Shown: positions 5,674 to 56,089, counted from the first letter of the stretch. The stretch is 64,000 nt of DNA from an uncultured Gammaproteobacteria bacterium (GCA_947259705.1 CAMYNL010000002.1:9868-73867), one strand, 5' to 3'. Notes: generated by a model from the letters alone, not told the origin. Translations and numbers: made by a program.

Positions 5674-5695
5674 GGGGCGGCGCGACACCGGCGGC

Positions 5696-29949: not shown

Positions 29950-29959
29950 TGAACGCTTA

Positions 29960-35870: not shown

Positions 35871-35900
35871 AACGGCGCCTTACCGGCGCCGTTTTTTTTC
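35871..35900 (+). terminator. rho-independent terminator of the second porin gene
   Basis: aacggcgcc-ttacc-ggcgccgtt followed by tttttt. Confidence 0.85.
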
Positions 35901-36271
35901 AGCAGTAGGTTTATCGCAACAGTCCAGGGGCATTGCAACGGAATTCGGGGTGACAGACGCCGCTCTGGACTTCAAGGGCACATAGGTCGCTGTGGCTTGA
36001 ACGAAAGCTGGCCGCTACCCTTATTCTGCATTGTCGTTAGTGTGATCATTTATATATCCGTCTAACGAAAACGAAAGTACACCGGTCGCAGCGTCGAAAT
36101 GTTCTTCGGCATTACAGTCTGGCAGCTGGACGTAATTGAAGACCTGAATCCTTATCCGGACATCTTTGATCTACCAGACAAAAAATTAGAATCCCTGGCG
36201 AACGCCTGGTGGATATATTGAAAGCTGCGATAAAACCATCACAGCAACGCGACCTTAATTGATTATGTATA

Positions 36272-36736: not shown

Positions 36737-37072
36737 TTACGACAGATACAATCCAATGGGATGGAAAAGAAAGCGATTGTAGCTTGAGCCGACAAGGATC
36801 GTAAGAGTTCAACTCATCGAGGGCTCTATTGGGCTGAGAGTCGACGAAGAGATGTCGCAGTCTCGTCAATTCTCTGAGGATCTGGTCAGTCATCTGGATC
36901 ACGAATTAATAAACCTTGTTGCCTGATAGGTGCATTAGGTCAACGTGTCGCCGCCAAATTGGTAACTACCAGCCTATGGCGCTAACGCGAGTCGGGTTTG
37001 CAGCACATGCGTTTGCGGTCGATGGCCCGATATTGTGACGACTATTTCACCTAGCGATGCCCAGTGTTGCGA

Positions 37073-39986: not shown

Positions 39987-40238
39987 CTAGCCGCCGGCCA
40001 CCGGCGGCCAGATGGCCAGCACGTCGTTTTCCGCCAGCACCGGCTGCTCGCGGCGCTCGGGCGCCACGTAGCCGCCGTTGATGAGCACCAGGTGCGCCAT
40101 CGGACGCGGCACCTTGAACATGTCGATCACCTGGTTCGGCGTGGCATCGTCCGGAACCTCCACCACGGTCGCGTTTTCACGCGACTCCGCCGGCAGCAGG
40201 TCCCCCAGGGTGGCGAAAAGCTTCAAAGTAATCTTCAT
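39987..40238 (-). CDS. MoaD/ThiS-family ubiquitin-like sulfur carrier (ends ...PPVAGG)
   Basis: MKITLKLFATLGDLLP...VLINGGYV...DVLAIWPPVAGG*. Its ATG overlaps the upstream TGA (ATGA). 83 aa. Confidence 0.8.
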   Translation of the reverse strand: MKITLKLFATLGDLLPAESRENATVVEVPDDATPNQVIDMFKVPRPMAHLVLINGGYVAPERREQPVLAENDVLAIWPPVAGG

Positions 40239-41497: not shown

Positions 41498-41520
41498 CGT
41501 GCACTCTCCATATTCTTTGG

Positions 41521-41550
41521 TAAAAAACGGGTGGGTCCTGAGGACCCACC
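41521..41550 (-). terminator. intrinsic terminator/attenuator between aorB and aorC
   Basis: The minus strand reads GGTGGGTCC-tca-GGACCCACC followed by cgtttttt. It is followed by SD GGAGA and the aorC ATG. Confidence 0.6.
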
Positions 41551-41597
41551 ACTGTTCGGCAATCTACACAAACAGCCTTTTGTTTTAGAGGAGGAGA

Positions 41598-43448
41598 TCA
41601 CAAACCCAGTCGTTGTTTGGTCTCATCGGTGACGACGCCGTCCGCCGTCCAGCCGCGGATCTTGTAGTACTCCGGCAGCATCTTGCCGAGTTCGTTCACC
41701 TTGCCCTGGGCCGGACCGGCGTTCGCAGCTTCTTCCAGCAGGCGCTTGGGCAGCGTGTCATCCTTGCCCGTCACACCGGCCAGGCGGTTGAACTCGCGTT
41801 CCATGTTCCAGATCCGTTCCCCCAGTTCCACCAGCTTCTCGGTGGTCCACCCGCCCTCGCAGGCGGCGTCGAGCTGCGGCGCCACGTCGTCCAGGGTCCA
41901 GGCAAAGGAGGTGAACACGCACAGGCCGCTGGAATCGAAGGCGGCGGTGGCGTCCTGGAAGGCCTTGACCAGCTCCGCCTTGCCCTCGGTGGCCAGCGGA
42001 TCGGTCTTTTCCGGGATGCCGAGGATCTCGGAGGCGACGGTGTAGCCGCGCAGGTGGCAGGCGCCGCGGTTGGAGGTGGCGTAGGCCAACCCCATGCCCT
42101 GGATGCCGCGCGGATCGTAGGCCGGAAATTCCTGGCTCTTCACGGTCATGGAGAGCTCGGGATGACCATACTTCTCGCACATCCTCCTGGAGCCCAGCGC
42201 CAGGTCGCGGCCGAAACCCTCACCCGCGGCCACCATCTCGACGCCATGCACCAGCGCCTCGGCGGAACCGAAATTGTAGGCCATGCCACCGGTGTGCTCA
42301 TTGGTGATCACGCCCATCTCGTAGAGCTCCATCGCCGCGGCGACGGTAGCGCCGAAGGAGATCGGATCGATGCCGTCCTCGTTGCACACGAAGTTGGCAT
42401 AGGTGATCGCATCGAGGTCATCAACGCCGTTGTCCGAACCCAGCGACCAGGCCGCCTCGTATTCCAGCCCGCCGGAGGCCTTCCAGTACTCGGGCTTGTT
42501 CTTGATGGTGAAGTGGCCCTGGTCGACGGTGGAGATGCGCCCGCAGGCGATGGTGCAGCCGAAACATGCCGCGTTGGTGGTCAGGTTGGGCTGACCATCG
42601 CTCGCGCGTGGCTCGTGCATCGCCTCGCCGGAGATCTTATGGGCGCCCTCGAACTGAGTCTCGCGCATGTTGCGGGTAGGCATCGCCCCCGACTCGTTTA
42701 TGACGTTCATCAACACCTGGGTGCCGTACTTGGGCAGGCCCTCGCCGGTCACGGCATTCTCGCGCAGCACCCGCTTGCCCTCCTCGGTGGCCTGCAGGAA
42801 ACGCATCGGGTCCTTGATATTGCCGACGCCCTTAGTGCCTCGAGCCACCACGGCCTTGAGGTTCTTCGACGCCATCACGGTGCCGACCCCGGAGCGGCCG
42901 GCGGCGCGGTGCAGGTCATTGACCACCGCGGAATAGAGGCAGCCGTTCTCCGCCGAGCGGCCCACCAGGGCGATCTTGATCAGGGCGTCCTGGTGCTTCT
43001 TGTGCAGGATCTCGTCGGCCTCCCACACCGATTTGCCCCAGATGTCACCGGCATCCATCAATTGGACGCTGTCGTCATGCACATACAGGTATACGGGCTT
43101 CGGCGACTTGCCCTCGAAGATGATCATGTCCCAGCCGGCGGCCTTCAGCTCGGCGCCGAAATAACCGCCGGAGTTGGAGCAGGCCACGGTGCCGGTGAGG
43201 GGGCTCTTGGTCACCACCGAGTACCGGCCGCCGGTGGAGGCCATGGTGCCGGTGAGGGGACCGGTGGTGACGATGAACTTGTTGTCCGGCCCCAGCGCGT
43301 CACAGGTGGGATCGACCTCCTCCACCAGGTACTTGGTCGCCAGCCCGCGCTGACCCAGGTACTGCTGGGCCCATTCCATGTTGAGCGGCTCTTCGGTGAT
43401 CTTGCCCTCGGTGAGGTTCACCCGCATCACTTTGTTGGTCCATGCCAT
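41598..43448 (-). CDS. aorB: tungsten-type aldehyde:ferredoxin oxidoreductase family protein (AorB-like)
   Basis: 616 aa from the ATG at 43448 (SD GAGGAGG). MAWTNKVMRVNLTEGKITEE...QYLGQRGLATKYL and the overall length are typical of the AOR family. Confidence 0.9.
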   Translation of the reverse strand: MAWTNKVMRVNLTEGKITEEPLNMEWAQQYLGQRGLATKYLVEEVDPTCDALGPDNKFIVTTGPLTGTMASTGGRYSVVTKSPLTGTVACSNSGGYFGAELKAAGWDMIIFEGKSPKPVYLYVHDDSVQLMDAGDIWGKSVWEADEILHKKHQDALIKIALVGRSAENGCLYSAVVNDLHRAAGRSGVGTVMASKNLKAVVARGTKGVGNIKDPMRFLQATEEGKRVLRENAVTGEGLPKYGTQVLMNVINESGAMPTRNMRETQFEGAHKISGEAMHEPRASDGQPNLTTNAACFGCTIACGRISTVDQGHFTIKNKPEYWKASGGLEYEAAWSLGSDNGVDDLDAITYANFVCNEDGIDPISFGATVAAAMELYEMGVITNEHTGGMAYNFGSAEALVHGVEMVAAGEGFGRDLALGSRRMCEKYGHPELSMTVKSQEFPAYDPRGIQGMGLAYATSNRGACHLRGYTVASEILGIPEKTDPLATEGKAELVKAFQDATAAFDSSGLCVFTSFAWTLDDVAPQLDAACEGGWTTEKLVELGERIWNMEREFNRLAGVTGKDDTLPKRLLEEAANAGPAQGKVNELGKMLPEYYKIRGWTADGVVTDETKQRLGL

Positions 43449-43461
43449 GTCGTGTACCTCC

Positions 43462-43980
43462 TCAGGCGCGCTGGTAAGAAGAGACGTCTTTCGACGCCGG
43501 CGTGTTGAAGCTCGCCTCGACCGGCTGGCTGCGCTGGGCCCAGGCGCGCATGCGGTCCAGGCCCGTGTGATCTCCATCCACGTAGGTGATGGCACCGGTC
43601 GGGCAGGCCTTCGCGCACCAGGGGTCGCCGCCGCACAGGTCGCACTTCACCACCTTGCCCGATGCCGAGTTGTAGTTCACGGTGCCGAAGGGACAGGCGA
43701 TGGTGCAGACCTTGCAGCCCACACAGGTATCCTCGAGCACCTCCTTGGCGCCGGTGGTCTCATTCACCACGATCGCCTCGACCGGGCAGGCATGCATGCA
43801 CCAGGCCTCGTCGCACTGGGTGCAGGTGTACGGCGCGAAACGGCCCGTGTCATGAAACATGAAGACCTTGATGCGGGACTTGGAGGGGTTGAACACCCCC
43901 TCGTTCTCGTAGGAACAGGCCATCTCGCACTGCAGGCAACCAGTGCATTTTTCTGGCTCCAGCTTGAGCGCTCTCAGCAT
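43462..43980 (-). CDS. aorA: 4Fe-4S polyferredoxin-like electron-transfer subunit (AorA-like)
   Basis: 172 aa with four Cys clusters (CTGCLQCEMAC, CTQCDEAWCMHAC, CVGCKVCTIAC, CDLCGG..WCAKAC). SD GGAGGAG. Confidence 0.85.
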   Translation of the reverse strand: MLRALKLEPEKCTGCLQCEMACSYENEGVFNPSKSRIKVFMFHDTGRFAPYTCTQCDEAWCMHACPVEAIVVNETTGAKEVLEDTCVGCKVCTIACPFGTVNYNSASGKVVKCDLCGGDPWCAKACPTGAITYVDGDHTGLDRMRAWAQRSQPVEASFNTPASKDVSSYQRA

Positions 43981-44079
43981 TGCAAAACTCCTCCGGATTT
44001 TCTCGTGGCTCTCGGTGGCTGAATATCATACAGGGTCAGCGCGGCGTTGCCGCGTAAACCGTGATAGCCATACGTTACC

Positions 44080-44095
44080 TGCAACTTGCGTGCCA
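44080..44095 (-). promoter_or_regulatory. sigma-54 promoter of the aor operon
   Basis: The minus strand reads TGGCACGCAAGTTGCA, a perfect TGGCACG-N4-TTGCA, about 100 nt upstream of the aorA ATG. Confidence 0.75.
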
Positions 44096-44179
44096 TGGAT
44101 GCGCGGCGCCTGTCTCGCGCCTAAACAGGCGGCCGGGGGCCTGGTCAGCCTCAGATTTGTTGCATACGCGCCTGGCGAT

Positions 44180-44195
44180 GTCCCAATAATGGGAC
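44180..44195. promoter_or_regulatory. perfect palindrome, candidate enhancer (UAS) for the AcoR-like activator
   Basis: GTCCCAATAATGGGAC lies about 90 bp upstream of the -24 element of the aor sigma-54 promoter. Confidence 0.3.
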
Positions 44196-44208
44196 ACCCG
44201 CGCGGGCT

Positions 44209-44649
44209 TTACCCGTCGTTGATCTGCAGGCGGACCTCGGTCACCTGGTCGCCGGCGACGAAGAAGGCCCGCAGCCGGTCTCCGACCGCGGCGTGGGGCG
44301 CGGCGATCACGTACAGGGCATCCGGATAGGCATGCAGCGCCAGGTCGGTGGCCGACGGATAGGCCGGCGCCTCGACATGGGAATGGTAGATGCCCAGCAG
44401 ATCCTCGCCCTGCTCCGCCATCGCCCGCATTGCCGCCAGCTGGCTGCGCGGTTCCATATCGAAATGCTGCCGGCGGTCGGCGGCGGCGTTGCGGGCGGGA
44501 TAGGCAGCGCGCACCATGCCGCCTTCGCCGCCGATCAGGCCGCACACCTCCTCGTCCGGGCTGCCGGCGGCATGGGTCAGGATGGCTTCCGCCACCGCCC
44601 GGGGGAAGGCGACCAGCGCCTGCGGCTGCCGGCGATCCGCGTCAGCCAT
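44209..44649 (-). CDS. JAMM/MPN+ (Mov34) metalloprotease-family protein
   Basis: EEVCGLIGG ... GIYHSHVEAPAYPSATD carries the E...HxH-x7-S-xx-D JAMM motif. The ATG at 44649 is preferred over the ORF-track start at 44742. Confidence 0.75.
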   Translation of the reverse strand: MADADRRQPQALVAFPRAVAEAILTHAAGSPDEEVCGLIGGEGGMVRAAYPARNAAADRRQHFDMEPRSQLAAMRAMAEQGEDLLGIYHSHVEAPAYPSATDLALHAYPDALYVIAAPHAAVGDRLRAFFVAGDQVTEVRLQINDG

Positions 44650-44830
44650 GACCGTCAGCGCGCCGGCGCCGGCGCCGGCCCGCCACCGGTGGCAGCGGTC
44701 CGCTCGAGGCGGGACACAACCGTCTCGGTTTTGTATCGTCAACTGTAATCAAGGTACACTGCCCGAAGGTCTCACATCTGCCGTGAATACAACAACATAA
44801 CACGAGTTGACGGCACGCCGGGCGGGACCA

Positions 44831-44846
44831 TGGCACGGTGTTTGCT
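44831..44846 (+). promoter_or_regulatory. sigma-54 promoter-like element directly upstream of the AcoR-like regulator gene
   Basis: TGGCACGGTGTTTGCT is a perfect TGGCAC-N5-TTGC. Its 3' end lies 20 nt before the ATG at 44867. Confidence 0.55.
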
Positions 44847-44866: not shown

Positions 44867-46912
44867 ATGAAAAGTACAACGAGGATGGACCACATCAGCA
44901 GGATCTCACGGGTCGCCAGGCTCGGCACGGCAGGCGACGAAGCCGCCCTCGAAGAGCAGGGTCTCGACGACCAGATCGTCTCCTCCTGGCATCGTTGTCT
45001 GTCCACCTATGGCATCGATCCGGTTTCCAGTCAGTCGGTAGTGGTGCTCGACTCGCCCGAGTTGAAAGAACACCAGGAACGGCTGGATCACATGCTCAAG
45101 ATCGCCGACGCCGAGATGCAGCTCGTCTACGAGGCGGCCGCCGGATCCGGCTACGCGATCATTCTCACCGATGCCCAGGGCGTCATCCTGCATCATGTCT
45201 CGGACCCGCGCCTGGAGCGGGAATTCCGCGACGCGGGCCTGTGGGTGGGGGCCAGCTGGGACGAGGAAGCGCAGGGCACCAACGGCATCGGCACCTGCAT
45301 CATCGAAGGGAAACCCATCACCGTGCACCGGGACGAGCACTTCCGCAGCCAGAACATCGACCTCACCTGCTCCGCGGCGCCGATCCGCGATCCGCGCGGT
45401 GAGCTTATCGCCGTGCTGGACTCGTCGGCGTGCACCAACGAGGATTCGCGCAATTCACAGACCCATGTGCGCGCGCTGGTCAGCACCTCCGCGCGGCTGA
45501 TCGAAAATCGTAATTTCCTTTTCGAATTCCGCAACAAGAAGGTGCTGCGTTTCCACAGCCGTCCCGAGTACGTCGGACTGCCGAACGAGGCGATGCTGGC
45601 GCTGGACGGGGACTGCCAGATCCTGGCGGCCAACGGCGTGGCGGTGGATTTTCTCAACGCCCATTCTCGCCGCGACCTGATAGGCAGGTCCTTGTCGGAG
45701 GTCCTCGACGCCAAGTCCACCCGCCTGATCGACGAGATGCGGTCAAAGATGGGGACGCTGCTTCCGATCCGGGGCCGCGCCACCGGGCGGCGCTTCTTCG
45801 CCATGCTGCATGCGCCCACGGCTCCCACCCCGGTTGCCCGGGTCGAGACGCCGGCGCCAACACGGCGTGACAAGTCACGTCTAGACCTGCGCGCGGTTGC
45901 CGGCCGGGACCCGCACATGAACTACAACGTGCGTTGCGCCGAGCGGATCATGAACAAGAACGTGCCCATCATCATCGAGGGCGAAACGGGTACCGGCAAG
46001 GAAGTGTTCGCGCTGGCCATCCACCTGGCAAGCGATCGGCGTGACCAGCCTTTCGTAGCGCTGAACTGCTCCGCGATTCCGGAGTCGCTGATCGAAAGCG
46101 AGTTGTTCGGCTACAAGCACGGCGCATTCACCGGCGCGCGGCGGGAGGGCATGAAAGGCAAGATACTGCAATCCAGCGGCGGCACCCTGTTCCTGGACGA
46201 GATCGGCGACATGCCGCTGCCGTTGCAGACCCGCCTGCTGAGATGCCTGGAGGAAGGCGAGGTCGTCCCGCTGGGCGGCGACAAATCCATATCGGTCGAC
46301 CTCAACGTCATCAGCGCCACCCACCGCGACCTGGAGTCATTGGTGGAGAGGGAGACTTTTCGCGAGGACCTCTATTACCGCCTCAACGGCATCAGCCTGA
46401 CGCTGGCGCCACTGCGTGAACGCGAGGACCGGGAGCAGTTGATCGAGTCTATCGTCGCCCTGGAAAACGAGAGCGACCAGGCGGTCAGGATCGACGACGA
46501 GGCCATGGACAAGCTGGTGCGCTTTGACTGGCCGGGCAATATTCGTCAGCTCCGCAATGTGATCCGCACCGCCTTGGCGATGGCCGACAACCATGTACTC
46601 AGGCTTGCCGACCTTCCCGGAGCGGTGGTCAATGCCCGGGAGCGCGCTAGCCCCGCGGGCGCGGCAAGGAGCCGTTTCGTCACCCAGTCGGCCGGCGCCT
46701 CGGTGCCGGAGACGGTGGGTCCCCGCGCGGCGGGTACCGCGGCCGAGGCGGAACTGAACCCCCTGGAGGTGGCGGAGAAGGAGGCCATCCTGATGGCGCT
46801 CGCCGCCAACTGCTGGAACATCACCAATACCGCCGCCGCGCTGGATATGAGCCGCAACACCCTGTACCGGAAACTGAAAAGGCACGGTCTTCCCACCACA
46901 CGTCCGGCCTGA
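44867..46912 (+). CDS. sigma-54-dependent transcriptional activator, AcoR-like (GAF sensor + AAA+ + Fis-type HTH)
   Basis: The N-terminal region IVSSWHRCLSTYGIDP is AcoR-like. It has the AAA+ Walker A motif GETGTGKE, the GAFTGA loop (HGAFTGA), and the C-terminal HTH NITNTAAALDMSRNTLYRKLKRHG. The start could instead be 44885. Confidence 0.85.
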   Translation: MKSTTRMDHISRISRVARLGTAGDEAALEEQGLDDQIVSSWHRCLSTYGIDPVSSQSVVVLDSPELKEHQERLDHMLKIADAEMQLVYEAAAGSGYAIILTDAQGVILHHVSDPRLEREFRDAGLWVGASWDEEAQGTNGIGTCIIEGKPITVHRDEHFRSQNIDLTCSAAPIRDPRGELIAVLDSSACTNEDSRNSQTHVRALVSTSARLIENRNFLFEFRNKKVLRFHSRPEYVGLPNEAMLALDGDCQILAANGVAVDFLNAHSRRDLIGRSLSEVLDAKSTRLIDEMRSKMGTLLPIRGRATGRRFFAMLHAPTAPTPVARVETPAPTRRDKSRLDLRAVAGRDPHMNYNVRCAERIMNKNVPIIIEGETGTGKEVFALAIHLASDRRDQPFVALNCSAIPESLIESELFGYKHGAFTGARREGMKGKILQSSGGTLFLDEIGDMPLPLQTRLLRCLEEGEVVPLGGDKSISVDLNVISATHRDLESLVERETFREDLYYRLNGISLTLAPLREREDREQLIESIVALENESDQAVRIDDEAMDKLVRFDWPGNIRQLRNVIRTALAMADNHVLRLADLPGAVVNARERASPAGAARSRFVTQSAGASVPETVGPRAAGTAAEAELNPLEVAEKEAILMALAANCWNITNTAAALDMSRNTLYRKLKRHGLPTTRPA

Positions 46913-46946: not shown

Positions 46947-46962
46947 TGGTATCCATTTTGCA
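46947..46962 (+). promoter_or_regulatory. candidate sigma-54 promoter upstream of pqqB
   Basis: TGGTATCCATTTTGCA has GG and GC correctly spaced, with two deviations from TGGCAC in the -24 hexamer (TGGTAT). It lies about 40 nt before the pqqB ATG. Confidence 0.45.
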
Positions 46963-47001
46963 TGCAGGGAAGGCGCGACCCTTAGCAGAGAACCCTGATT
47001 G

Positions 47002-47916
47002 ATGCAGATACTGGTGCTCGGTTCCGCCGCCGGCGGAGGATTCCCGCAATGGAACTGCAACTGTGAGATGTGCTCGGGCGTGCGCAGCCAGCGCATTCGG
47101 GCACGCCCGCGCAGCCAGTCGTCGATCGCGGTGAGCAGAAACGGCGTCGACTGGGCGCTGATCAACGCCTCGCCGGACATCCGACAGCAGCTGCTCGCGA
47201 ACCCGGCACTGCAGCCGGCGCGCCAGAAACGCGACACCGGTGTGCGCGCGGTGGTGCTGATGGACAGCCAGATCGACCATACCACCGGGCTGCTGACGCT
47301 GCGCGAGAACCAGGAGCCGCTGCAGCTGTACTGTACCGCCATGGTCCACCAGGACCTCACCACGGGGTTTCCGGTCATCGACATGCTGCAGCATTACTGC
47401 GGCGTGGAGTGGCACGAGATCGACCTCGATGCGGCGAAGTTTTCGGTGCGCGCGGTGGACGGCATCGGCTTTCGCGCCGTGCCCCTGTCCAGCAAGGCGC
47501 CGCCCTATTCGCCGCACCGCAACGACCCGCATCCCGGCGACAATATCGGGCTGCTCATGGAGGACATGGAAACCGGAAAAACGGCATTCTATGCCCCGGG
47601 GCTGGCGGCCGTGAGCGAGGACCTGGTGCCATACATGGCGTCGGCCGACTGCCTGCTGGTGGACGGCACCTGCTGGACCAACGATGAGATGCCGCAACGC
47701 GGCGTGGGCGCCAAGCTCTCCCTGGACATGGGCCACCTGCCGCAGTCCGGCGACGGAGGCATGATCGAGCAGCTGCGGCGGTTCGATCGCCAGCGCAAGA
47801 TACTCATCCATATCAACAATACCAACCCGATCCTCGAAGAGGACTCGACGGCCCGGGCGCGGCTCGACGCCGTCGGCATCGAAGTGGCGTGGGACGGGAT
47901 GACGCTGGAACTGTGA
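47002..47916 (+). CDS. pqqB: PQQ biosynthesis protein B
   Basis: [24 protein letters not shown]... is a typical PqqB N-terminus with MBL-like fold. Confidence 0.95.
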
Positions 47917-47918: not shown

Positions 47919-48665
47919 ATGAACCCCCCTGCCGCCGCCGACCTGCCGCCCTGGTCTCGAGCAGAATTCGCGGACCGGCTGCGTGCCTACGGGGCACGCT
48001 ACCATATCCACCATCCTTATCAACGCATGATGGCCGCGGGCGAGTTGAGCAGGGAACAGATACAGGGATGGGTGGCCAACCGTTACTACTACCAGGTCAG
48101 CATCCCGATCAAGGACGCCAACCTGCTCGCCAACTGTCCGGACCGGGAGACCCGCCGCCTGTGGGTGCAGCGCATACTCGACCATGATGGCTATGGCGGC
48201 GAGTCCGGAGGCATCGAGGCCTGGCTGGCGCTGGGGGAAGCGGCGGGGCTGGACCGCGACACGCTCGAGTCCCAGCGCATGGTGCTGCCGGGGGTGCGTT
48301 TCGCGGTTGACGCCTACATCAATTTCGTCCGCCGCGCCGACTGGCACGAAGGGGCCGCGTCTTCGTTGACCGAACTGTTCGCGCCGGAGATCCACAAGCA
48401 ACGGCTCGACAATTGGCCGCAACACTATCCATGGGTTGACCAGGCCGGGTTTCAGTATTTCCGCAAGCGACTCGCCGAGGCCCGTCGCGACGTCGAACAC
48501 GGCCTGGAACTCACGCTCGACTACTTCAACACACGAACGCTGCAGGAGCGGGCACTGGAACTGCTGCAGTTCAAGCTGGACATACTTTGGACCATGCTGG
48601 ATGCCATGTACATGGCGTACGTGAACCAGATGCCGCCTTATTTCAACTGCGAGGAGATTCGATGA
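47919..48665 (+). CDS. pqqC: pyrroloquinoline-quinone synthase PqqC
   Basis: MNPP...[33 protein letters not shown]... The ATG is 2 nt after the pqqB stop. Confidence 0.95.
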
Positions 48666-48955
48666 ACCAAGTATCCGTAGACAGTGTTTACCGGCTGTCT
48701 CCCACCCACCGCCTGCAATGGGAGGCGGCGCAGAATTCAGATGTACTCTTGTATCCGGAAGGGATGGTAACGCTCAACCAGAGCGCCAGCGAGATCCTCA
48801 AGCATTGCGACGGCTCGCGCAGTGTCCAGGAGTTGGTGCAGGAACTGGAACGCAAGTTCTCGGCCCGGGACCTTACCCAGGAGGTCATCAGTTTCCTCGA
48901 AGCCGCCCTGGAGCGCGGCTGGATCAAGCGCGCCGAAAACGCATCCGGTCAGTGA
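48662..48955 (+). CDS. pqqD: PQQ biosynthesis peptide chaperone PqqD
   Basis: 97 aa: [54 protein letters not shown] overlap with pqqC. Confidence 0.9.
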
Positions 48956-49701
48956 CGCGGCCCGACCCTCACCACCGGCTGCTGCTGCAATGGTTGCTGT
49001 TCGCCGGTATCCTGGTGTTTGCCATCTGGGTGGCCTGGGACCATGGCCTGCTGGAGAAAGTGTACCGCAGCGACCCGACACGGTTGTCGCTGGTAATTTC
49101 ACTGCTGTTTGTGGCCGCCACGGTTCACTGCGCCGCCCGCGCGCTGTATCTTTCGCGGCAACTCAACCACATTAATGCCATTCGGCACCTCACCGCACAA
49201 CAGCGCTTTGCGCCGCGGTTGCGGGACGGACAACTGGTCATCGGCAACGCCCATGCCGCCGGGTCCCTGCCCGCCGTCTATCTCGCCGCGATCCTTGCCA
49301 AGTACCAGGCCAAAGCGCCGGTGGAACTTCGCGGCCTGGAACATGCGCAGCTAACCGAGGTGCTCGCGGAACAGGCGCGCGGCCCCCACGAGACCGGGTG
49401 GTTCGTCACCGGATTGCTGTTGAAGCTGGGACTGCTGGGCACGGTGATCGGATTCGTACTGATGCTCGGGTCGGTCTCGGGCATCGAGTCCTTCGACGTG
49501 CAGGACGTGCAGGCAGTGCTCAAGAACATGACGGTGGGGATGGCGGTTGCACTGAACACCACGCTCATCGGCTTGCTCGGCAGCATGCTGCTCGGCTTCC
49601 AGTACCTGCTGCTGGACCGCGGCGCCGACAAACTGGTGGCTGACACGGTGCATTATGCCGAGACCAGCCTGCTGCCCGTGCAGCCTACGCAAAACGGGTA
49701 G
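48952..49701 (+). CDS. MotA/TolQ/ExbB-family proton-channel protein (cassette gene 1)
   Basis: About 249 aa from the GTG at 48952, which overlaps the pqqD TGA (GTGA). It has four predicted TM helices. The C-terminal blocks LGLLGTVIGFVLML and GMAVALNTTLIGLLGSMLLGF are typical of ExbB/TolQ. Confidence 0.75.
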   Translation: MTRPDPHHRLLLQWLLFAGILVFAIWVAWDHGLLEKVYRSDPTRLSLVISLLFVAATVHCAARALYLSRQLNHINAIRHLTAQQRFAPRLRDGQLVIGNAHAAGSLPAVYLAAILAKYQAKAPVELRGLEHAQLTEVLAEQARGPHETGWFVTGLLLKLGLLGTVIGFVLMLGSVSGIESFDVQDVQAVLKNMTVGMAVALNTTLIGLLGSMLLGFQYLLLDRGADKLVADTVHYAETSLLPVQPTQNG

Positions 49702-49709
49702 GCCTCGGT

Positions 49710-50318
49710 TTGGCCTTTCGGCGACCACGACGACAGCTTGATCAGGATCCGTTCACCGACCTGCTGTTCAATTCCCTGCTGGCCTTTACCTTTCTGTTCC
49801 TGATCACCATCATGTTTCTGAACCCGCCGGCAAAGACCGGCATCATCGACCCCAAGGCCGAGTTCATCATCACCACCAAATGGGAGGACTTCAGCCCCGA
49901 TGACATCGATACCTGGGTAGAGGACCCGAAAGGCGACATCGTATGGTTCCGCAGCGCGGAAGCGGGGCTGATGCACCTGGATCGTGACGATCGTGGCATC
50001 AGTAACGACATGATGCTGGTCAACAACGAGGAATTGATAAACCCTCTCAACCAGGAGGTGGTGACCATACGCGGCTTCGTGCCGGGAGAGTACGTCGTTA
50101 ACCTGCATTACTATGCCAGCAAGACCGGCAAACCGGCAGCGGTGACGGTTCGTGTCGTCAAGGTGAACCCGAGGCTTCAGGTGGTTTACTACGGGACGGT
50201 CACGCTGGCCAGGGTGGGAGCGGAAACAACGGCCGTGCGCTTCTCGGTGACCCCGGATGGCGCCGTCGAGGGTATCAACACCATACAGAAATCGATAGTG
50301 TTGGTAGACAAGATATGA
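49710..50318 (+). CDS. ExbD/TolR-like single-pass protein with unrelated periplasmic domain (cassette gene 2)
   Basis: TTG start, with no in-frame ATG before the TM helix. RRPRRQLDQDPFTDLLFNSLLAFTFLFLITIMFL resembles the ExbD/TolR N-terminus, including the Asp at the TM entry. The roughly 150-aa C-terminal domain is unrecognised. Confidence 0.6.
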   Translation: MAFRRPRRQLDQDPFTDLLFNSLLAFTFLFLITIMFLNPPAKTGIIDPKAEFIITTKWEDFSPDDIDTWVEDPKGDIVWFRSAEAGLMHLDRDDRGISNDMMLVNNEELINPLNQEVVTIRGFVPGEYVVNLHYYASKTGKPAAVTVRVVKVNPRLQVVYYGTVTLARVGAETTAVRFSVTPDGAVEGINTIQKSIVLVDKI

Positions 50319-50827
50319 ACGAGGCAATCATAGGACTGACCGTAGCCTACGTCGCGTTGGCCGGCTTCGTAATCGGGCTCAGCATCTTTTCACGCTGGCC
50401 ATACTGGGTGAAACTCATCTCGGTGGCCGGCGTGTGCGGCCTTTATTTCCTTACCTACGCCTCGTTCAAGGGCCTGCTCGGCTGGCCGACCCGGGCCGAA
50501 CTGCCGGCGCACTTCATGTTGCTGGCGTCCTATGTCAGCGAACCCGACAAGGCCGGCGGCAGCGCGGGAAGTATCCAGATCTGGGCGGCATCACTGGCAG
50601 GTAACCGGCCGGCCGAGGCGCCGCGCGCCTATCACCTCGACTATGACGCAGAACTGCATGGTCAGCTGGAAGAGGCAGACAAGCGCATGCGACAGGGCAT
50701 CATCCAGCTCGGGCGCAAGCAGGATGCAGCGACTGCGGGCGACTCCGGTGACCCTTCCCGTTTCGCCCGCAACCCTTACCGCATCGTGATCTTCGATCTG
50801 CCAGATCCGGAGCTGCCCGAGAAGTGA
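50315..50827 (+). CDS. hypothetical membrane protein (cassette gene 3)
   Basis: 170 aa. Its ATG overlaps the upstream TGA. It has about three N-terminal TM helices and a charged soluble tail. Confidence 0.6.
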   Translation: MNEAIIGLTVAYVALAGFVIGLSIFSRWPYWVKLISVAGVCGLYFLTYASFKGLLGWPTRAELPAHFMLLASYVSEPDKAGGSAGSIQIWAASLAGNRPAEAPRAYHLDYDAELHGQLEEADKRMRQGIIQLGRKQDAATAGDSGDPSRFARNPYRIVIFDLPDPELPEK

Positions 50828-50909
50828 CCGGTGACCGGGTGCCGCGCGGAAACTGCTGCCGGCCGTCGCCGGAGCCCGCCCTGCCGGGGCGGGATCCCAG
50901 CCCAGACGT

Positions 50910-51653
50910 GTGATCTCGCAGGCCGCTGACGTGCCGCCCCGAGCCATCTCAGGACCCGCTTTCCACCTCGGCTGCGGGCTGGTCTTGGCAGTCACCATGC
51001 TGAGCGGGTGCCAGCAAACGGACCGCGGCTATTTCCCCCTGCACGACGGAGCGCGGTGGGAGTACCGCTTGACGAGTACGTGGAGCGACGGCGAGGAGAC
51101 CACCCGCTACGCGGTGACCAACCTCCGGTCAACCATGCTGGATGGACGACCCGCCACCATACGCCGCGACAGCCGGGGCACCGATTACTACATCACCCAG
51201 GATCGGCAGGGTATCGCCCGGGTGGCGAAGCGCACCGTGGTCGAGTTCGAGCCGCGACCTGAACCGGAACCGCGCTACGTCATCAAGTTTCCCCCTGTTG
51301 TCGGCACGGAGTGGCGGGTGAGCAGCCATCCCTTCCTGCTGAAGCGGCTGCTTCCCTTCAAGGAACGCTTCAATCGTGATTTCAGCGTGGTCATGCAGTA
51401 CAGCATCGTCAGCACCGACGCGGCGGTCAGCGTACCGGCCGGACAGTTTACCGGCTGCCTGCTGCTGCAGGGCGAGGGTACCCTGCGCATCTACGCTGAC
51501 GCGGTGGCAGGGATTTCCGAGGTGCCGGTTACCTCCCGTGAGTGGTACGCACCCGGCGTGGGGCTGGTCAAACTTGAGCGCCGGGAGGAGCTGAACACCA
51601 CCCAGATCATCGGCGGCTCGGCACGGCTTGAACTGCTCCGTCACCGCCGCTGA
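50910..51653 (+). CDS. hypothetical lipoprotein (cassette gene 4)
   Basis: Lipobox AVTMLSGCQQ. GTG start at 50910 or 50931. I recognise no family for the mature part of about 215 aa. Confidence 0.6.
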   Translation: MISQAADVPPRAISGPAFHLGCGLVLAVTMLSGCQQTDRGYFPLHDGARWEYRLTSTWSDGEETTRYAVTNLRSTMLDGRPATIRRDSRGTDYYITQDRQGIARVAKRTVVEFEPRPEPEPRYVIKFPPVVGTEWRVSSHPFLLKRLLPFKERFNRDFSVVMQYSIVSTDAAVSVPAGQFTGCLLLQGEGTLRIYADAVAGISEVPVTSREWYAPGVGLVKLERREELNTTQIIGGSARLELLRHRR

Positions 51654-51744
51654 ACTGGTTCGCCGCATCCAGCATGGTGGCTGTATACAACCATTTCGTG
51701 ATCCGGTGCCGGGCAATCCGCGCGCCCGTCGCCGCCATGAGACC

Positions 51745-51760
51745 TGGCATGGTTCTTGCT
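51745..51760 (+). promoter_or_regulatory. sigma-54 promoter upstream of pqqA
   Basis: TGGCATGGTTCTTGCT has a single mismatch to TGGCAC-N5-TTGC with correct spacing. It lies about 104 nt before the pqqA ATG. Confidence 0.65.
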
Positions 51761-51863: not shown

Positions 51864-51938
51864 ATGATTTGGTCAACACCTGAGTTCAAAGATCTGCGGT
51901 TGGGCTTCGAGATCAACCTGTACATCAACAACCGCTAA
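51864..51938 (+). CDS. pqqA: PQQ precursor peptide PqqA (24 aa, absent from the ORF track)
   Basis: [24 protein letters not shown] contains the conserved E-x3-Y (EINLY) and the DLRLG context. SD GGAG lies 9 nt upstream. Confidence 0.9.
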
Positions 51939-51954
51939 GCAGTCCGGCATGCGG

Positions 51955-51976
51955 CGCGGACCGGTTCCGGTCCGCG
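51955..51976 (+). terminator. stem-loop immediately after pqqA (attenuator or stabiliser)
   Basis: cgcggaccgg-tt-ccggtccgcg is a 10-bp perfect inverted repeat, 17 nt after the pqqA stop. There is no U-run. Confidence 0.5.
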
Positions 51977-52053
51977 TCCATTGCTCCCCCAGCCCTCCCG
52001 TGTACCGGGGGTCCCTGTATCAACCGCGCGAGTTCCGCGCCCGGTTCCCGACC

Positions 52054-53205
52054 GTGTCCCAGAACGTCATCGATCCGCAGGCCCTAGGCAAGCCCCTGTG
52101 GCTGCTGGCGGAGTTGACCTACCGCTGCCCGCTACAGTGTCCCTACTGCTCCAATCCGCTTGACCTGGCGCGCTACCGCGACGAGCTTTCCACTGCGGAC
52201 TGGGTGCGGGTGTTTACCGAGGCGAGGGCAATGGGAGCCACCCAGCTCGGCTTCTCCGGCGGCGAACCGCTGGTCCGCAAGGACCTCACGGAACTGGTTG
52301 CCGCGGCCCGCGGCCTCGGTTATTACACCAACCTGATCACCTCAGGCGTAGGCATGAACGAGTCGCGCATCCGCTCGCTGAAGGAAGCCGGCCTGGATCA
52401 CATCCAGATCAGCTTCCAGGCCAGCAGCGAGGAACTCAACAACTATCTGGGCGGCAGCGACAGTTTCCGGCACAAGATGGAAATGGCCCGCCTGGTCAAG
52501 GCCTACGAGTACCCGATGGTGCTGAACGTGGTGCTGCACCGGCAGAACATCGATTACATGCGCGAGATCCTGGACATGGCCGTGATGCTGGAAGCCGACT
52601 ACGTGGAGCTGGCCAACACCCAGTACTACGGCTGGGCCTACGTCAACCGGGACCAGCTGCTGCCCCAGCGTGAACAGATCGAGCAGGGCGAGCGCATTGC
52701 CCACGAGTACCAGGACCGGCTGCGCGGACAGATGAAGATCTACTACGTGGTGCCGGACTATTTCGAGGGCCGCCCGAAAGCGTGCATGAGTGGCTGGGGC
52801 TCCATATTCCTCACCATTGCCCCGGACGGCACGGCCCTGCCCTGCCATGCCGCCGGCCAGCTGCCGGGCCTCGGCTTCCCCAACGTCCGCGAACACACTA
52901 TCGACTGGATCTGGAACGACTCTCCCGACTTCAATCTGTTCCGGGGCGAGGACTGGATGCGCGAACCCTGTCGCTCGTGCCCGGAACGCTCCAGGGACTT
53001 CGGGGGCTGCCGCTGCCAGGCCTACATGCTGACCGGTGACCCCCGCAACACCGATCCGGCGTGCAGTCTCTCGCCCCAGCACGAGAAGATCATCCAGGCC
53101 GTCGACCGCGCCGGTGGTGCGCCGGAAGAAAAGCCGCTGGTATTCCGCAACCTGCGCAACGCCCGGACACTGAGCGGGTCGCCGCCCGCCCCGCCCACCG
53201 ACTGA
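52054..53205 (+). CDS. pqqE: PQQ biosynthesis radical-SAM enzyme PqqE
   Basis: [24 protein letters not shown] carries the CxxxCxxC motif, plus the SPASM-type C-terminal Cys-rich region. The GTG at 52054 is preferred (383 aa). The ORF-track start at 51949 is also possible. Confidence 0.9.
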
Positions 53206-53255: not shown

Positions 53256-54701
53256 ATGCCCGGTGACGCGAAATCCCTCTCCCGCCTGTTGCTGAGCTAC
53301 GAGCTGGCGTTCACCCTGCTGATCGTGGTGACAGCCAGCGTGGGCGGCGTCTGGGTGTATTTCTGGCAGCAGAACTCCCGGGCGTCACTGGAGATAAACC
53401 GCCTTTCCTATGATGCGCAGCAGCTGCGCGCCGACCTGTACCGCCAGATCCGCGAGGTCTACGTGGCCAGCCGTGCCCAGGACCCGCGGGTCCTCGACAA
53501 GTACTGGACCCACATCTATGACATCGACCGCCGGTTCCATGCGCTGGAACAGGTGGTGACCGGCGGCGAGGCCTCCGCGATCCGCGGCATGCGCAACGCC
53601 TACGAAATGCTGCAGGCGCAATTGAACCGGGTACTGTCGCAGTCAGTCAGCGAGAGCCGGCGTGAGCGCATCATTCAACCTGCCTACGAGTTCTGGCTGC
53701 AGGGAGAATTCGAATCCGAGTTCGCCCGCCTGAACCAGTTGATCGCCGAGCGCCGCGCCCTGCTGGACCGGCGCCTGGCGCGCTGGAACCGCGTCGCCCC
53801 CTGGCTGCTGCCGGTGCCGATCCTGCTCGCGGTGTGGTTGCTGGGACGCTCGCACCGGCGGCTGCGGCGGGAGTTTTCGCAGCCCATGGCCGAACTGAAA
53901 AGCGGCGCAGAGCAGATCAGCGAGGGCAGGCTGGAGCACCGCGTCAATGAGCAAGGGGCCGAGGAAGTGGCCCTGCTGGCGCGGACGATCAATCAGATGG
54001 CGGCGGAACTCGCAGCCAGCCGCGACGAACTGGTGGAGAAGGAGCGACAAGCGGCGCTGGGCGCGCTGGTGCCCGTTGTCGCCCATAACATACGCAACCC
54101 GCTGGCCAGCATCAGGGCCTCGGCGCAGATCCTCGATCCGGCTGATCGCGCCGAGCTGGACGAGACCCGGCGCGGCATCATCGATACAGTGGACCGGTTG
54201 GAACGCTGGGTCAGCGCACTGCTTTCCTACCTGCATCCGCAGACACCCAGGCGCAGCGAGGCGCAGCTCGAGGAGATCATCAATGGGGCGCTGGCACCCC
54301 TGCGGGCCAGGGCACGCGACAAGGACGTCCAGCTACACCACCATGCGGCCCCACCGGGGCGTAGCCTGCTGATAGACAGCGCGTTGATGGAGCAGGCGAT
54401 CCACGGCTTGGTGCTCAACGCGCTGGAGGCGGCTCCCGACGGCAGCACCATCGATATCAGGCGCCAGGAGCAGGGACGGGGCGCGGTGATACTGATCGAG
54501 GATGAGGGCACAGGGATGCCCTTCGACCCCAGCCCCGGCGATTTCTCTCCGGGCCCGACCACCAAACCGTCGGGTACCGGCCTGGGGATACCTTTCGCCC
54601 ACAAGGTGATACATGCCCATGGTGGTACACTGGAATTCGAAGGCAGAAGGAAACACGGAACGCGGGTCCGCGTCACCATCCCCTACCAAGGAAACACATG
54701 A
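53256..54701 (+). CDS. sensor histidine kinase (2 TM, HAMP, HisKA, HATPase_c)
   Basis: ATG at 53256. HAMP segment ...EEVALLARTINQMAAEL, H-box VVAHNIRNPLASI and G-boxes EDEGTGM / GTGLGIPF. Confidence 0.85.
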   Translation: MPGDAKSLSRLLLSYELAFTLLIVVTASVGGVWVYFWQQNSRASLEINRLSYDAQQLRADLYRQIREVYVASRAQDPRVLDKYWTHIYDIDRRFHALEQVVTGGEASAIRGMRNAYEMLQAQLNRVLSQSVSESRRERIIQPAYEFWLQGEFESEFARLNQLIAERRALLDRRLARWNRVAPWLLPVPILLAVWLLGRSHRRLRREFSQPMAELKSGAEQISEGRLEHRVNEQGAEEVALLARTINQMAAELAASRDELVEKERQAALGALVPVVAHNIRNPLASIRASAQILDPADRAELDETRRGIIDTVDRLERWVSALLSYLHPQTPRRSEAQLEEIINGALAPLRARARDKDVQLHHHAAPPGRSLLIDSALMEQAIHGLVLNALEAAPDGSTIDIRRQEQGRGAVILIEDEGTGMPFDPSPGDFSPGPTTKPSGTGLGIPFAHKVIHAHGGTLEFEGRRKHGTRVRVTIPYQGNT

Positions 54702-56089
54702 GCGGTCCCGAGAGCACGATCCGTATTGCGCTGGTGGAAGACGAGGCATTGTTCGCCAAGGCGGTGGAGCGGACCCTGAATCGGCATGGTTACGAAACCA
54801 CGGTCTTCGGCTCACTGTCTGCGGCCGCGGAGGCGGTGCCCGCGCTGCAGCCGGACCTGATGCTGCTGGACATGCGTCTCCCCGACGGCTCGGGCCTGGA
54901 TTACCTGGAGCGCCTGCGCGGCGACAAGTCCGCGCAGGCGGTGGTGGTAATGACCGCGTTCGGCGACCTTGAGAACGCCGTCGCTGCGATGAAGCTCGGG
55001 GCCCTGGATTACCTCAAGAAGCCCATCGACATGGACGACCTGGTGCATGCCGTGGACAAGGCACTGGAACAGGTGCAGCTAACGCGCAGACTCGGCTATT
55101 CGCGGCAGCGCGAAGCGCGGGGCAACCGGGAGAACACGTTGCTGGGAGAAAACCCGCAGATCGTGGAGCTGCGGGAGGAGATCGCCCACATCGGCGCGAT
55201 CAGCACCCGCACCGACGAACCCCCTCCAACGGTGCTGATCCTGGCTGAGACAGGCTGCGGCAAGGACCTGGTGGCCAGGGCGCTGCACGATGCCAGCGCC
55301 CGCCGCGACCGCCCGTTCGTGCAGGTCGATTGCGCCGCCCTCCCCGACGAGCTTATCGAGTCGGAATTGTTCGGGCACGAGAAAGGGGCCTTCACCAGTG
55401 CCCATAGACAACGCAGCGGGCTTATCGAGGCGGCCGAAGACGGTACCGTGTTTCTTGACGAGATCGGTGAACTGCCGCTGGACCTGCAGGCGAAACTGCT
55501 CGCGGTGCTGGAACGACGCAAGGTGCGCGCGGTCGGCAGTACGCGGGAACGGGACACCCAGGCCTGGTTCATCGCCGCCACCAACCGGGATCTCAATGCG
55601 ATGGTGGCCAACGGGGCTTTTCGCTCCGACCTCTACTTTCGCCTCAACATCGTCACCCTCAGCATACCGCCCCTGCGCGAGCGCGGGGGCGACGTGCAGC
55701 TGCTGGCCCGACATTTCGCCGCCCAGGCCACGCGTCGTTACGGCGTCACGGGCATAGAACTGAAACCGGAGATTATCGACCAACTGGACCGATATGCGTG
55801 GCCGGGCAACGTGCGCGAACTCGCCCACGTCATGGAACGCGCCGTGCTGTTGAGCCGGGACGGCAATGTCACCGCCGCTCAACTCGCCCTGGCCCCGCCA
55901 CGGGATACCGCAAGTGCAGAGGCTGCCCTGGACAACCTGACGCTGGAGGAGGCGGAACTGCGGCTGATCCGCCATGCCCTGCAGAGAACCCGCGGTAACG
56001 TGTCGGAGGCGGCGCGGCGCCTCGGTGTTACCCGGATGACGATGCGCCACCGGATCAAGAAGTACGGCCTGGACGACCGCGACAGCTGA
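54698..56089 (+). CDS. sigma-54-dependent response regulator (NtrC family)
   Basis: REC domain (LMLLDMRLPDGSG), AAA+ domain (AETGCGKD, GAFTSA, ELGELPL) and C-terminal HTH NVSEAARRLGVTRMTMRHRIKKYG. Overlaps the kinase stop. Confidence 0.9.
   Translation: MSGPESTIRIALVEDEALFAKAVERTLNRHGYETTVFGSLSAAAEAVPALQPDLMLLDMRLPDGSGLDYLERLRGDKSAQAVVVMTAFGDLENAVAAMKLGALDYLKKPIDMDDLVHAVDKALEQVQLTRRLGYSRQREARGNRENTLLGENPQIVELREEIAHIGAISTRTDEPPPTVLILAETGCGKDLVARALHDASARRDRPFVQVDCAALPDELIESELFGHEKGAFTSAHRQRSGLIEAAEDGTVFLDEIGELPLDLQAKLLAVLERRKVRAVGSTRERDTQAWFIAATNRDLNAMVANGAFRSDLYFRLNIVTLSIPPLRERGGDVQLLARHFAAQATRRYGVTGIELKPEIIDQLDRYAWPGNVRELAHVMERAVLLSRDGNVTAAQLALAPPRDTASAEAALDNLTLEEAELRLIRHALQRTRGNVSEAARRLGVTRMTMRHRIKKYGLDDRDS

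Follow-up and report, generated by a model that had tools for sequence, protein, structure and literature searches.

A three-gene MotA/ExbB/TolQ-family module shared by bacteria and phages, and lodged in a pqq operon, as a candidate envelope motor

We analysed a 64,000-nucleotide stretch of DNA from an uncultured Gammaproteobacteria bacterium (GCA_947259705.1, CAMYNL010000002.1:9868-73867; the window, whose coordinates are used throughout), in which four genes for membrane proteins, named here g1 to g4, lie among the pqq genes for the biosynthesis of pyrroloquinoline quinone (PQQ). The first three, g1-g2-g3 (the triad), recur as a unit in bacteria and in phages, and we think it reasonably likely that they constitute a previously undescribed three-component, proton-driven "5:2" motor of the MotA/ExbB/TolQ class, with g4 as a lineage-specific periplasmic partner. 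Few 5:2 proton motors have so far been worked out (Mot, Ton, Tol, Gld, Agl and Zorya), and each of these opened a field. A first-pass annotation had read the four genes as a stator-like cassette inserted in the pqq operon and dedicated to PQQ or quinoprotein biology; this reading was borne out in part, such dedication not being supported as the core role. We found no description of this cassette or triad in the literature.

A conserved unit of three genes with a variable fourth

Homologs of g2 are numerous. A database clustered at 90% identity held 6604 of them, the top 120 showing 65-98% identity and, where they have a name, being "hypothetical protein" save for two labelled YfaP (DUF2135 family), and an exhaustive profile search gave 2057 clusters at 50% identity; among the 150 listed, nearly all were partial or about 190-230 residues long. 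A close relative is encoded by at least 512 GTDB species representatives. The genes g1, g2 and g3 adjoin one another, in an unchanged order, in 82-84 of the 84 bacterial loci that we fetched, with g3 following g2 in all loci examined, and about 30 other species carry all four genes in the order of the window.

Two sister clades appear among the bacterial loci. Clade A comprises about 29 species besides that of the window, among them Arenicellales, Granulosicoccaceae, Salinisphaeraceae/Spectribacter, Ca. Thiodiazotropha and Thiothrix eikelboomii, and its fourth gene is the g4 lipoprotein. Its cultured carriers include Spectribacter hydrogenoxidans or S. acetivorans, and Thiothrix eikelboomii ATCC 49788, in which a PedH-like dehydrogenase is close by. 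In clade B (about 45 species) the genes around the triad are stable, being those for YkuD, DUF302, cytochrome b, and a histidine kinase paired with a sigma-54 response regulator; the fourth gene, also a separate gene, encodes 503 residues that comprise a signal peptide, a VWA domain in the periplasm, a transmembrane (TM) helix and an FHA domain in the cytoplasm. In phages no fourth gene is conserved. The "four-gene cassette" of the first-pass annotation is thus present in the window, while the conserved unit is three genes plus a swappable fourth. The kinase and regulator encoded at 53256..56089 in the window are 40% and 56% identical to the pair beside the triad in about 44 clade-B loci and, since this pair is common to the window and clade B, the two-component system has accompanied the triad for longer than pqq has. 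A neighbour-joining tree of g2 united the gammaproteobacterial clades in one short-branched group, and the viral sequences were diverse and lay outside it.

Features of the four proteins

The product of g1 has four hydrophobic (TM) segments and matches Pfam family PF01618 above its gathering threshold (31.5 bits against 22.9, residues 159-230), which agrees with its first description as a 4-TM protein with the ExbB/TolQ/MotA signature. Within the triad only g1 belongs to this family, which is matched also by g1 of Azospirillum (34.3 bits) and by the smaller g1 of phages (23.0-23.2 bits). A profile built from 20 g1 homologs found TolQ and MotA as its best matches in the PDB, weakly (E about 0.2), and in this alignment the invariant T164 and T204 pair with T145 and T178 of TolQ, the pore-lining threonines of the last two TM helices. 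The cytoplasmic loop of g1 is short, about 85 residues. In one homolog (P0238, 411 residues, on an NCBI/ENA contig of 49.5 kb) a single open reading frame (ORF) joins a g1-like MotA_ExbB protein to a g2-like protein, which could be a true fusion or a frameshift.

The g2 protein has one TM segment by hydropathy, and its AlphaFold2 (AF2) model places a TM helix at residues 14-37 and a β-sandwich at 52-190. Asp17, within PFTDLLF, is invariant in 20 of 20 aligned sequences and kept in most of the distant and phage homologs. Compared by hhalign with ExbD, D17 pairs with D25 and the stretch around PFTDLLF with ExbD 20-30, so that the resemblance to ExbD/TolR noted earlier for the N-terminus concerns the helix only and is not significant. 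The predicted periplasmic domain (residues 45-202) holds the invariant motifs HLDRDDRG, NPLNQE and GEY-VN-HYY and an invariant acidic cluster, and g2 is the best-conserved protein of the set, with 65-75% identity against 32-62% for g1.

Searches with g2 returned no known domain. It matched no Pfam or NCBIfam family at E<=0.1 and no PADLOC or PHROG family, its profile had no match among PDB sequences at E<=10, and Foldseek comparisons of the model gave generic β-sandwiches alone in the PDB, none significant and none with an OmpA-like fold, and no significant match among viral structures. The α/β periplasmic domain of ExbD/TolR (PF02472) was not detected in g2 by profiles, the AF2 fold being a β-sandwich, and the OmpA-like peptidoglycan-binding domain of the MotB/ZorB type had no match in g2 with Pfam or NCBIfam. 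The C-terminal domain is therefore as non-canonical as it had first appeared and, since g2 has no canonical ExbD/TolR domain by profile or Foldseek, we rejected an ordinary ExbBD set. A JGI label, "YfaP (DUF2135)", carried by a few g2 homologs was dropped because Pfam gave no match at E<=0.1; in the literature we did not find DUF2135/YfaP described in the context of such a cassette.

The third protein agrees with its earlier description as an ATGA-coupled, 170-residue polytopic protein: the overlap can be read in the sequence and the AF2 model has two TM helices. Its invariant C-terminal tail is acidic and rich in proline. Foldseek comparison of this model with the PDB gave OB-like or generic matches alone, none significant. 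The loop between the helices is strongly positive and the N-terminus is not, which places the C-terminal domain outside the cytoplasm, probably in the periplasm.

The LSGC lipobox reported for g4 is present, and the lipoprotein signal peptide and its cysteine are kept in all g4 homologs. Translation could start at GTG 50910 or GTG 50931, both of which give a proper lipoprotein signal peptide. In a near-identical metagenome-assembled genome (MAG; GCA_945787095.1, L087) the public g4 call (10683-11339, equivalent to 50997-51653 of the window) begins at the Met of MLSGC and loses the signal peptide; this start (ATG 50997) is probably mis-annotated, because it cuts the signal peptide from a clear lipoprotein family. 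PF21347 (DUF3108-like) is matched by 15 of 16 members of the g4 family (best E 1.1e-8), the g4 of the window itself scoring 19.9 bits, below the gathering threshold of 27, and the g4 profile has relatives in the PDB (4fvs, 3fzx).

The triad in Azospirillum and in phages

Tblastn with g2 gave matches in the genomes of 29 phages of Rhizobium or Sinorhizobium (E down to 1e-28), as well as in chromids of Azospirillum. In A. brasilense Sp7, a model bacterium amenable to genetics, plasmid p1 (NZ_CP012915.1; L093 5139-6998) carries overlapping g1-, g2- and g3-like genes with no fourth gene, and its g3 homolog ends in LPQPQLPEK. This triad adjoins a divergent gene for an AmiC-like cell-wall amidase, and the same replicon has a second matching place.

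In the T4-like phage RHph_N34 (MN988534.1; L092 3426-4915) the g2 homolog lies between a 148-residue MotA_ExbB protein, which scores 23.0 bits with PF01618 and aligns to the g1 profile with a probability of 94% (hhalign, E 1.4e-7), and a g3-like protein (hhalign, E 2.7e-4). The same three genes are found in RHph_X2_25 (MW960032.1; L091 3251-5532), with an HNH homing endonuclease between g2 and g3. A scan of IMG/VR gave 138 viral contigs, of which many measure 100-527 kb and have a low G+C; in 79 of the 80 that were fetched (L094-L173) the hidden Markov models of g1, g2 and g3 matched three consecutive genes in the same order, whose neighbours match PHROG families. Viral g1 proteins are compact (156-187 residues in the IMG/VR contigs, 141-187 with the cultured phages included), with four TM segments and almost no cytoplasmic loop. 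No conserved fourth gene was found beside the viral triads. Neither the g1, g2 and g3 of the window nor the g2 and g3 homologs of phages matched a family in PHROGs, and tblastn of the window g1 and g3 against isolate phages gave no matches; the phage g1 and g3 were found only by way of the Azospirillum proteins and profiles. We found no report in the literature of a phage-encoded MotA/ExbB homolog or motor.

A proposed proton-driven motor

We propose that a g1 pentamer would form the channel around a g2 dimer, and that protonation of D17 would drive rotation or conformational cycling, the work being delivered in the periplasm. That the output is probably periplasmic is suggested by the near absence of a cytoplasmic loop in phage g1 together with the position of the best-conserved part of the set, the g2 periplasmic domain. 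The charge bias of g3, the lipoprotein character of all g4 homologs and the signal peptide and VWA-TM-FHA make-up of the clade-B partner point the same way. The g2 sandwich may bind an invariant envelope ligand, such as the cell wall or a metal-dependent partner. The g3 protein could act as a peripheral, TolA/TonB-like third subunit whose tail docks or recruits a variable partner, which would be the g4 lipoprotein here and the VWA-TM-FHA protein in clade B. The strict adjacency of the genes and the one g1-g2 fusion, P0238, give indirect support to the putative g1-g2 complex. In the genome of the window the module is translationally coupled to pqqD and probably shares a transcript with pqqBCD, started at a sigma-54 promoter. 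It lies in an island for a lanthanide-type (PedH-like) PQQ alcohol dehydrogenase (ADH), and co-regulation with periplasmic quinoprotein metabolism would follow.

Several points weigh against a motor of this kind. The similarity of g1 to TolQ and MotA in the PDB is weak by sequence and limited to TM3-TM4, and the alignment of the g2 helix with ExbD spans 11 columns at a non-significant E of 0.14. In a subgroup formed by P0153 and P0238 the helix Asp lies four residues earlier (DPFxV, not FTD). The AF2 models of g2 and g3 are of moderate confidence (predicted local distance difference test score of 74 for each), and the HLDRDDRG loop of g2 is poorly modelled. We infer the 5:2 architecture from family membership alone, and we can only guess at the ligand of g2 and at what g3 and g4 do. 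With respect to the setting in the island, the statistic for association with PQQ genes given below is not corrected for phylogeny, and the sigma-54 sites are consensus matches which, at up to two mismatches, are in no excess over shuffled sequence in the whole window.

Association with PQQ and quinoprotein islands

The triad lies inside pqq in the window species and in one Arenicellales MAG (L001; g2 75% identical) only; pqqA again stands between g4 and pqqE in the latter, which has the same pqqBCD-cassette-pqqA-pqqE layout. In L057, pqqBCD are adjacent to the triad, divergently upstream, and in Thiothrix eikelboomii pqqCDE lie 9-10 kb from it. A close relative, L006/L090, shows the same MimR-type activator as the window, then g1-g4 directly (in L090 the activator is directly 5' of g1), then the ped ABC cluster found in the window too, and pqq genes are absent from this place. 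The first-pass annotation had the cassette inserted inside pqq; this order was confirmed, but because L006/L090 place the cassette between the same neighbours without pqq genes, it is as apt to say that pqq flanks a resident cassette as that pqq is "interrupted" by it.

We counted as PQQ-system genes a PedH-like dehydrogenase with cytochrome c and SBP_bac_3, a ped-type ABC/beta-propeller/binding-protein cluster, or pqq genes. Such genes lie within about 11 kb of the triad in 18 of 29 clade-A species, from several families and at varied distance and orientation, as against 0 of 45 clade-B loci (Fisher p 5e-10, without correction for phylogeny). The association with quinoprotein islands is real for clade A, without being inherent in the triad itself.

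It had been suggested that the four genes encode a machine driven by the proton-motive force and dedicated to PQQ or quinoproteins, serving PQQ export or the powering of TonB-dependent uptake of lanthanide or PQQ; loading of the dehydrogenase with PQQ or lanthanide would be a further possibility. The coupling of g1 to pqqD and the clade-A linkage just described are what one would expect of it, as is the content of the window, which holds a PedH-type ADH whose DGWDYDG motif we take to be that of a lanthanide-type dehydrogenase, ped ABC components above NCBIfam cut-offs, and a TonB-dependent receptor; the acidic cluster of g2 could, moreover, bind Ca or lanthanide. The triad is, however, far more widespread than its linkage to PQQ, being generic across at least 512 species, absent from PQQ surroundings in every clade-B locus and in 11 of the 29 clade-A species, and set among unrelated genes in Azospirillum and phages. 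The receptor is 10 kb off on the other strand, and we rejected its identification as PqqU (118 bits against a cut-off of 1200). As first noted, the window contains no TonB/TolA partner, in the cassette or elsewhere, in so far as a crude scan for Pro/Glu/Lys-rich stretches gave no matches and TonB may be encoded elsewhere in the genome; nor did a TonB/TolA-like gene or a receptor recur beside the triad in the 84 loci. To our knowledge how PQQ reaches the periplasm is still not known, and we know of no MotA/ExbB/TolQ-family member that transports small molecules, which we count against such a function. We therefore judge a dedicated PQQ machine unlikely: a core role of this kind is not supported, the link of the triad with PQQ being an addition specific to a lineage.

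A further reading is that the triad is an unrecognised, ancient class of proton-driven envelope motor, shared by phages and bacteria and having a B subunit and a third subunit of its own, that clade A recruited for a missing, energy-coupled step in the maturation of periplasmic quinoproteins, namely for delivering PQQ and/or lanthanide to dehydrogenases of the PedH/XoxF type. This would explain how the triad came to be wired into pqq operons and ped islands; we consider it quite unlikely.

As side observations on these islands, the window carries at 26051-31705 (-) a cluster of the PedH-like ADH, cytochrome c, SBP_bac_3, a 184-residue protein, a SoxY-SoxZ fusion and a metallo-beta-lactamase, and the order of this ADH-SoxYZ cluster is conserved in Ca. 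Thiodiazotropha (L089 10966-15628). In Ca. Porisulfidus and Oxydemutatoraceae (L002-L004, L014, L016) SoxYZ fusions lie 2-3 kb 3' of the cassette, the ADH being absent there, and the cassette (about 5460-9150) directly follows a CN-hydrolase gene and a TldD/PmbA pair. TldD has reportedly been implicated in PQQ maturation in Gluconobacter, and the pair 5' of the cassette is a possible PQQ-processing link in these loci.

Phage conflict and ordinary energisers as alternatives

The abundance and high diversity of the triad in phages, with viral branches outside the gammaproteobacterial group, could also mean that it is a phage-derived conflict module, acting in anti-phage defence or superinfection exclusion in the manner of Zorya, or in phage takeover, which landed in a pqq island. 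The swappable fourth gene would suit such a module, VWA and FHA domains being frequent in conflict systems, and g1 gives weak matches to ZorA (PADLOC, E 2.7e-5; NCBIfam, 18.9 bits). These matches are, however, confined to the common TM3-TM4 region and fall far under the cut-off of 100; g1, of just 249 residues, has no long tail of the ZorA type; and PADLOC found nothing for g2-g4, with no match to ZorB, ZorC or ZorD and no effector-like gene. A Zorya system was accordingly rejected. Bacterial g2 proteins are 65-75% identical across orders and the clade-B neighbourhood is housekeeping-like, unlike fast-evolving defence islands, and the copy in the window is translationally coupled to a biosynthetic operon. 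We accord this reading, like that of recruitment by clade A, a small chance.

Lastly, it is extremely improbable that g1 and g2 are an ordinary ExbB-ExbD/TolQ-TolR energiser for a TonB or TolA encoded elsewhere, placed in pqq by chance, because in spite of the family of g1, the ExbD-like helix of g2 and the receptor 10 kb away, g2 has a β-sandwich, in which Pfam, NCBIfam and the PDB revealed no ExbD/TolR domain, g1 has four TM segments against three in ExbB/TolQ, g3 adds a conserved subunit that has no equivalent, and neither a TonB-like ORF in the window nor a receptor kept beside the triad in 84 loci was found.

Comparison with known motors

If the triad is a motor, as we favour, the closest known systems include Ton and Tol (ExbB-ExbD-TonB and TolQ-TolR-TolA). 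They have in common a PF01618 A subunit with the GLxGT and ALxxT threonines, a B subunit (predicted to be bitopic in g2) with an Asp near the cytoplasmic end of the TM helix in the context P-F/L-x-D-V/L, a third inner-membrane subunit, a tight gene cluster, and an output expected in the periplasm or outer membrane. They differ in the number of A-subunit TM helices, noted above, in the periplasmic part of the B subunit, where the α/β domain of ExbD/TolR stands against a sandwich of roughly 150 residues with no detectable relation to it, and in g3, whose two TM helices come with neither an SHLS motif nor a proline-rich rod; there is no TonB-box partner, TolB or Pal. With MotA-MotB/PomAB the triad shares an A subunit of four TM segments, a B subunit with one (in g2 predicted) TM helix and an Asp that is essential in stators, and adjacent genes. 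Unlike them, it has a short g1 loop, almost absent in phages, and hence no torque-generating interface, its g2 has neither a plug nor an OmpA-like peptidoglycan-binding domain, and it has no flagellar context.

The closest conceptual precedent is given by TolQ-like motors with vWA force transducers, in which "TPH-vWA" proteins were proposed to replace TolR (Mol Biol Evol 2025, PMC12204202); the protein family is a different one. Common to both are a TolQ-like pentamer (here a putative one) with a non-ExbD partner, an Asp on a TM helix and genetic linkage to vWA. In TPH-vWA motors the Asp helix is fused to vWA and the pairs are heterologous, whereas here it is fused to a novel β-sandwich; VWA occurs as a separate fourth gene in clade B only, with a signal peptide, TM helix and FHA domain, and g3 is without counterpart. 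Zorya shares with the triad a MotAB-like pair outside motility, the weak g1-ZorA profile matches and an association with phage biology, but the triad lacks the ZorA tail, the ZorB peptidoglycan-binding domain and the ZorC/ZorD/ZorE effectors, and its neighbourhoods are conserved and not those of defence.

A motor family with thousands of members would thereby be added to those known, in which two of three subunits match nothing in Pfam, NCBIfam, PHROG or PADLOC and an energy-converting helix is joined to a periplasmic domain of a new kind; names could be given to thousands of "hypothetical proteins". The compact phage versions, from cultured Rhizobium phages too, are small and tractable for structural work, those of RHph_N34 or marine phages being the smallest, and one may ask why a virus should carry a proton motor itself. 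The repeated embedding in PedH-type ADH islands, with coupling to pqqD in the window, makes the module a testable candidate for an envelope step of quinoprotein function. Its importance rests on a widespread, phage-shared motor family and on recruitment to quinoprotein islands more than on the interruption of pqq.

Organization and regulation of the window locus

The cassette and all pqq genes are on the plus strand, in the order sigma-54 activator, pqqB-C-D, g1, g2, g3, g4, pqqA, pqqE, histidine kinase, sigma-54 response regulator (Table 1), and GCA_945787095.1 holds the same genes. The five pqq genes, A to E, are intact and span 6.2 kb, and pqqA and pqqE, both above NCBIfam equivalog cut-offs, resume after the cassette as annotated. 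The junctions were borne out base by base: GTGA at 48952-48955 is the overlap of the pqqD stop with the g1 start, the TAG stop of g1 is followed after an 8-nt gap by the TTG start of g2 at 49710, and ATGA at 50315 joins g2 to g3. All the peptides that had been quoted, LGLLGTVIGFVLML and MAVALNTTLIGLLGSMLLGF for g1 and RRPRRQ and DPFTDLLFNSLLAFTFLFLITIMFL for g2, are present. The g3-g4 spacer is 82 nt long. It contains a GC-rich inverted repeat, CCCGCCCTGCCGGGGCGGG, at 50870-50891 with no T-run, and in most relatives g3 and g4 overlap (ATGA) in place of a spacer. Gene starts may differ from those tabulated for the activator (alternative start at 44807; 675 residues in the L087 gene call) and for pqqE, where homology starts at residue 45 and the true start may be GTG at 52054. 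Compared with canonical pqqABCDE(F), the locus has a complete pqqA-E set on one strand, with pqqA before pqqE and not before pqqB; the four unrelated membrane-protein genes in between have no counterpart in the canonical operon, and there are probably two sigma-54 promoters.

The candidate promoters before pqqB and pqqA have equivalents in the Arenicellales MAG, where a perfect sigma-54 site, TGGCACCGTTCTTGCT, lies at the equivalent place before pqqB and a good one, TGGCACAAATTCTGCA, at that before pqqA. Between pqqD and g4 we found no sigma-70-like promoter and no convincing terminator. Since a candidate promoter precedes pqqA, these sequences suggest that pqqBCD-g1-g4 and pqqA-pqqE are transcribed as separate units, each dependent on sigma-54. 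From the tight coupling to pqqD, together with the promoter-like sites before pqqB and pqqA, g1-g4 are probably co-expressed with pqqBCD. Exact TGGCAC-N5-TTGCW sites occur at 31818-31833 (-, before the ADH), 44080-44095 (-, before a ferredoxin/aldehyde ferredoxin oxidoreductase (AFOR) operon) and 44831-44846 (+, before the activator) and, because all three fall just upstream of genes, they suggest that the whole alcohol/aldehyde-oxidation island may be an RpoN regulon. The loci of Thiodiazotropha and Salinisphaeraceae have a one-mismatch site 22-137 nt 5' of g1; no consistent site was found upstream of the clade-B triad. A further element, TGTATACAACCATTTCGTG at 51680-51700, lies 5' of the promoter-like site of pqqA, and a similar one, GCGTACAACCAGTTTTGTCAC, beside the palindrome CAACCAGAGTTGGTTG, is found at about 11960-12000 of L001; this shared element may be an activator binding site.

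Table 1. Features of the window, with coordinates counted from its first nucleotide.
Feature	Coordinates	Strand	Description	Evidence and remarks
PedH-like ADH	29960-31705	-	Motif DGWDYDG	Closest to P. putida PedH (6zcw, E 1e-264)
TonB-dependent receptor	37073-39469	opposite to cassette	10 kb from cassette
sigma-54-dependent activator	44885..46912	+	MimR_N/GAF + AAA+ + HTH; immediately 5' of pqqB	NCBIfam and Pfam matches
Candidate sigma-54 promoter	46947..46962	+	TGGTATCCATTTTGCA; 37 nt 5' of pqqB	Consensus match only; 2 mismatches, GG and GC kept
pqqB	46999..47916	+		Lactamase_B_2, 165.8 bits; 74% identity to L001 pqqB
pqqC	47919..48665	+		TENA_THI-4/PQQC, 169.8 bits; ORF start possibly 47889; gene call in L087
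pqqD	48662..48955	+	Stop overlaps g1 start	PF05402, 58 bits
g1	48952..49701	+	249 residues; 4-TM MotA/ExbB/TolQ-family subunit	Presumed pentameric channel or rotor part
g2	49710..50318	+	202-residue bitopic "B-type" subunit	N-terminal TM helix with D17 (PFTDLLF), predicted periplasmic β-sandwich
g3	50315..50827	+	170 residues; two TM helices	Small beta-barrel-plus-helix domain; invariant C-terminal DLPDPELPEK
g4	50910..51653	+	DUF3108-like lipoprotein; accessory, clade-specific	Lipobox LSGC (MLSGC), Cys at 51009-51011
Candidate sigma-54 promoter	51745..51760	+	TGGCATGGTTCTTGCT; about 100 nt 5' of pqqA	Consensus match only; 1 mismatch
pqqA	51864..51938	+		TIGR02107, 39.8 bits (cut-off 20); L001 pqqA at same place
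pqqE	51949..53205	+		TIGR02109, 564 bits (cut-off 381)
HAMP histidine kinase and sigma-54-dependent response regulator	53256..56089	+	Regulator at 54698-56089	Pfam and NCBIfam matches

Other features of the window

Rfam and tRNA scans of the window gave no matches, the low-G+C stretch described here included. Between the ADH and the TonB-dependent receptor, at 32000-37000, G+C falls to 0.53-0.57 from about 0.65, and this stretch is possibly acquired DNA. It includes a gene whose product ends in a SHOCT-like region (32077-33027, -), a second, porin-like ORF (34531-35775, +) and an ORF of 154 residues. Between the receptor and the pqq genes lies a set (39987-44742, -) for a tungsten-type AFOR, a 4Fe-4S ferredoxin, a pyridine-nucleotide-disulphide oxidoreductase, and ThiS-like and JAB-domain proteins; the Arenicellales MAG has the same set plus ThiF.

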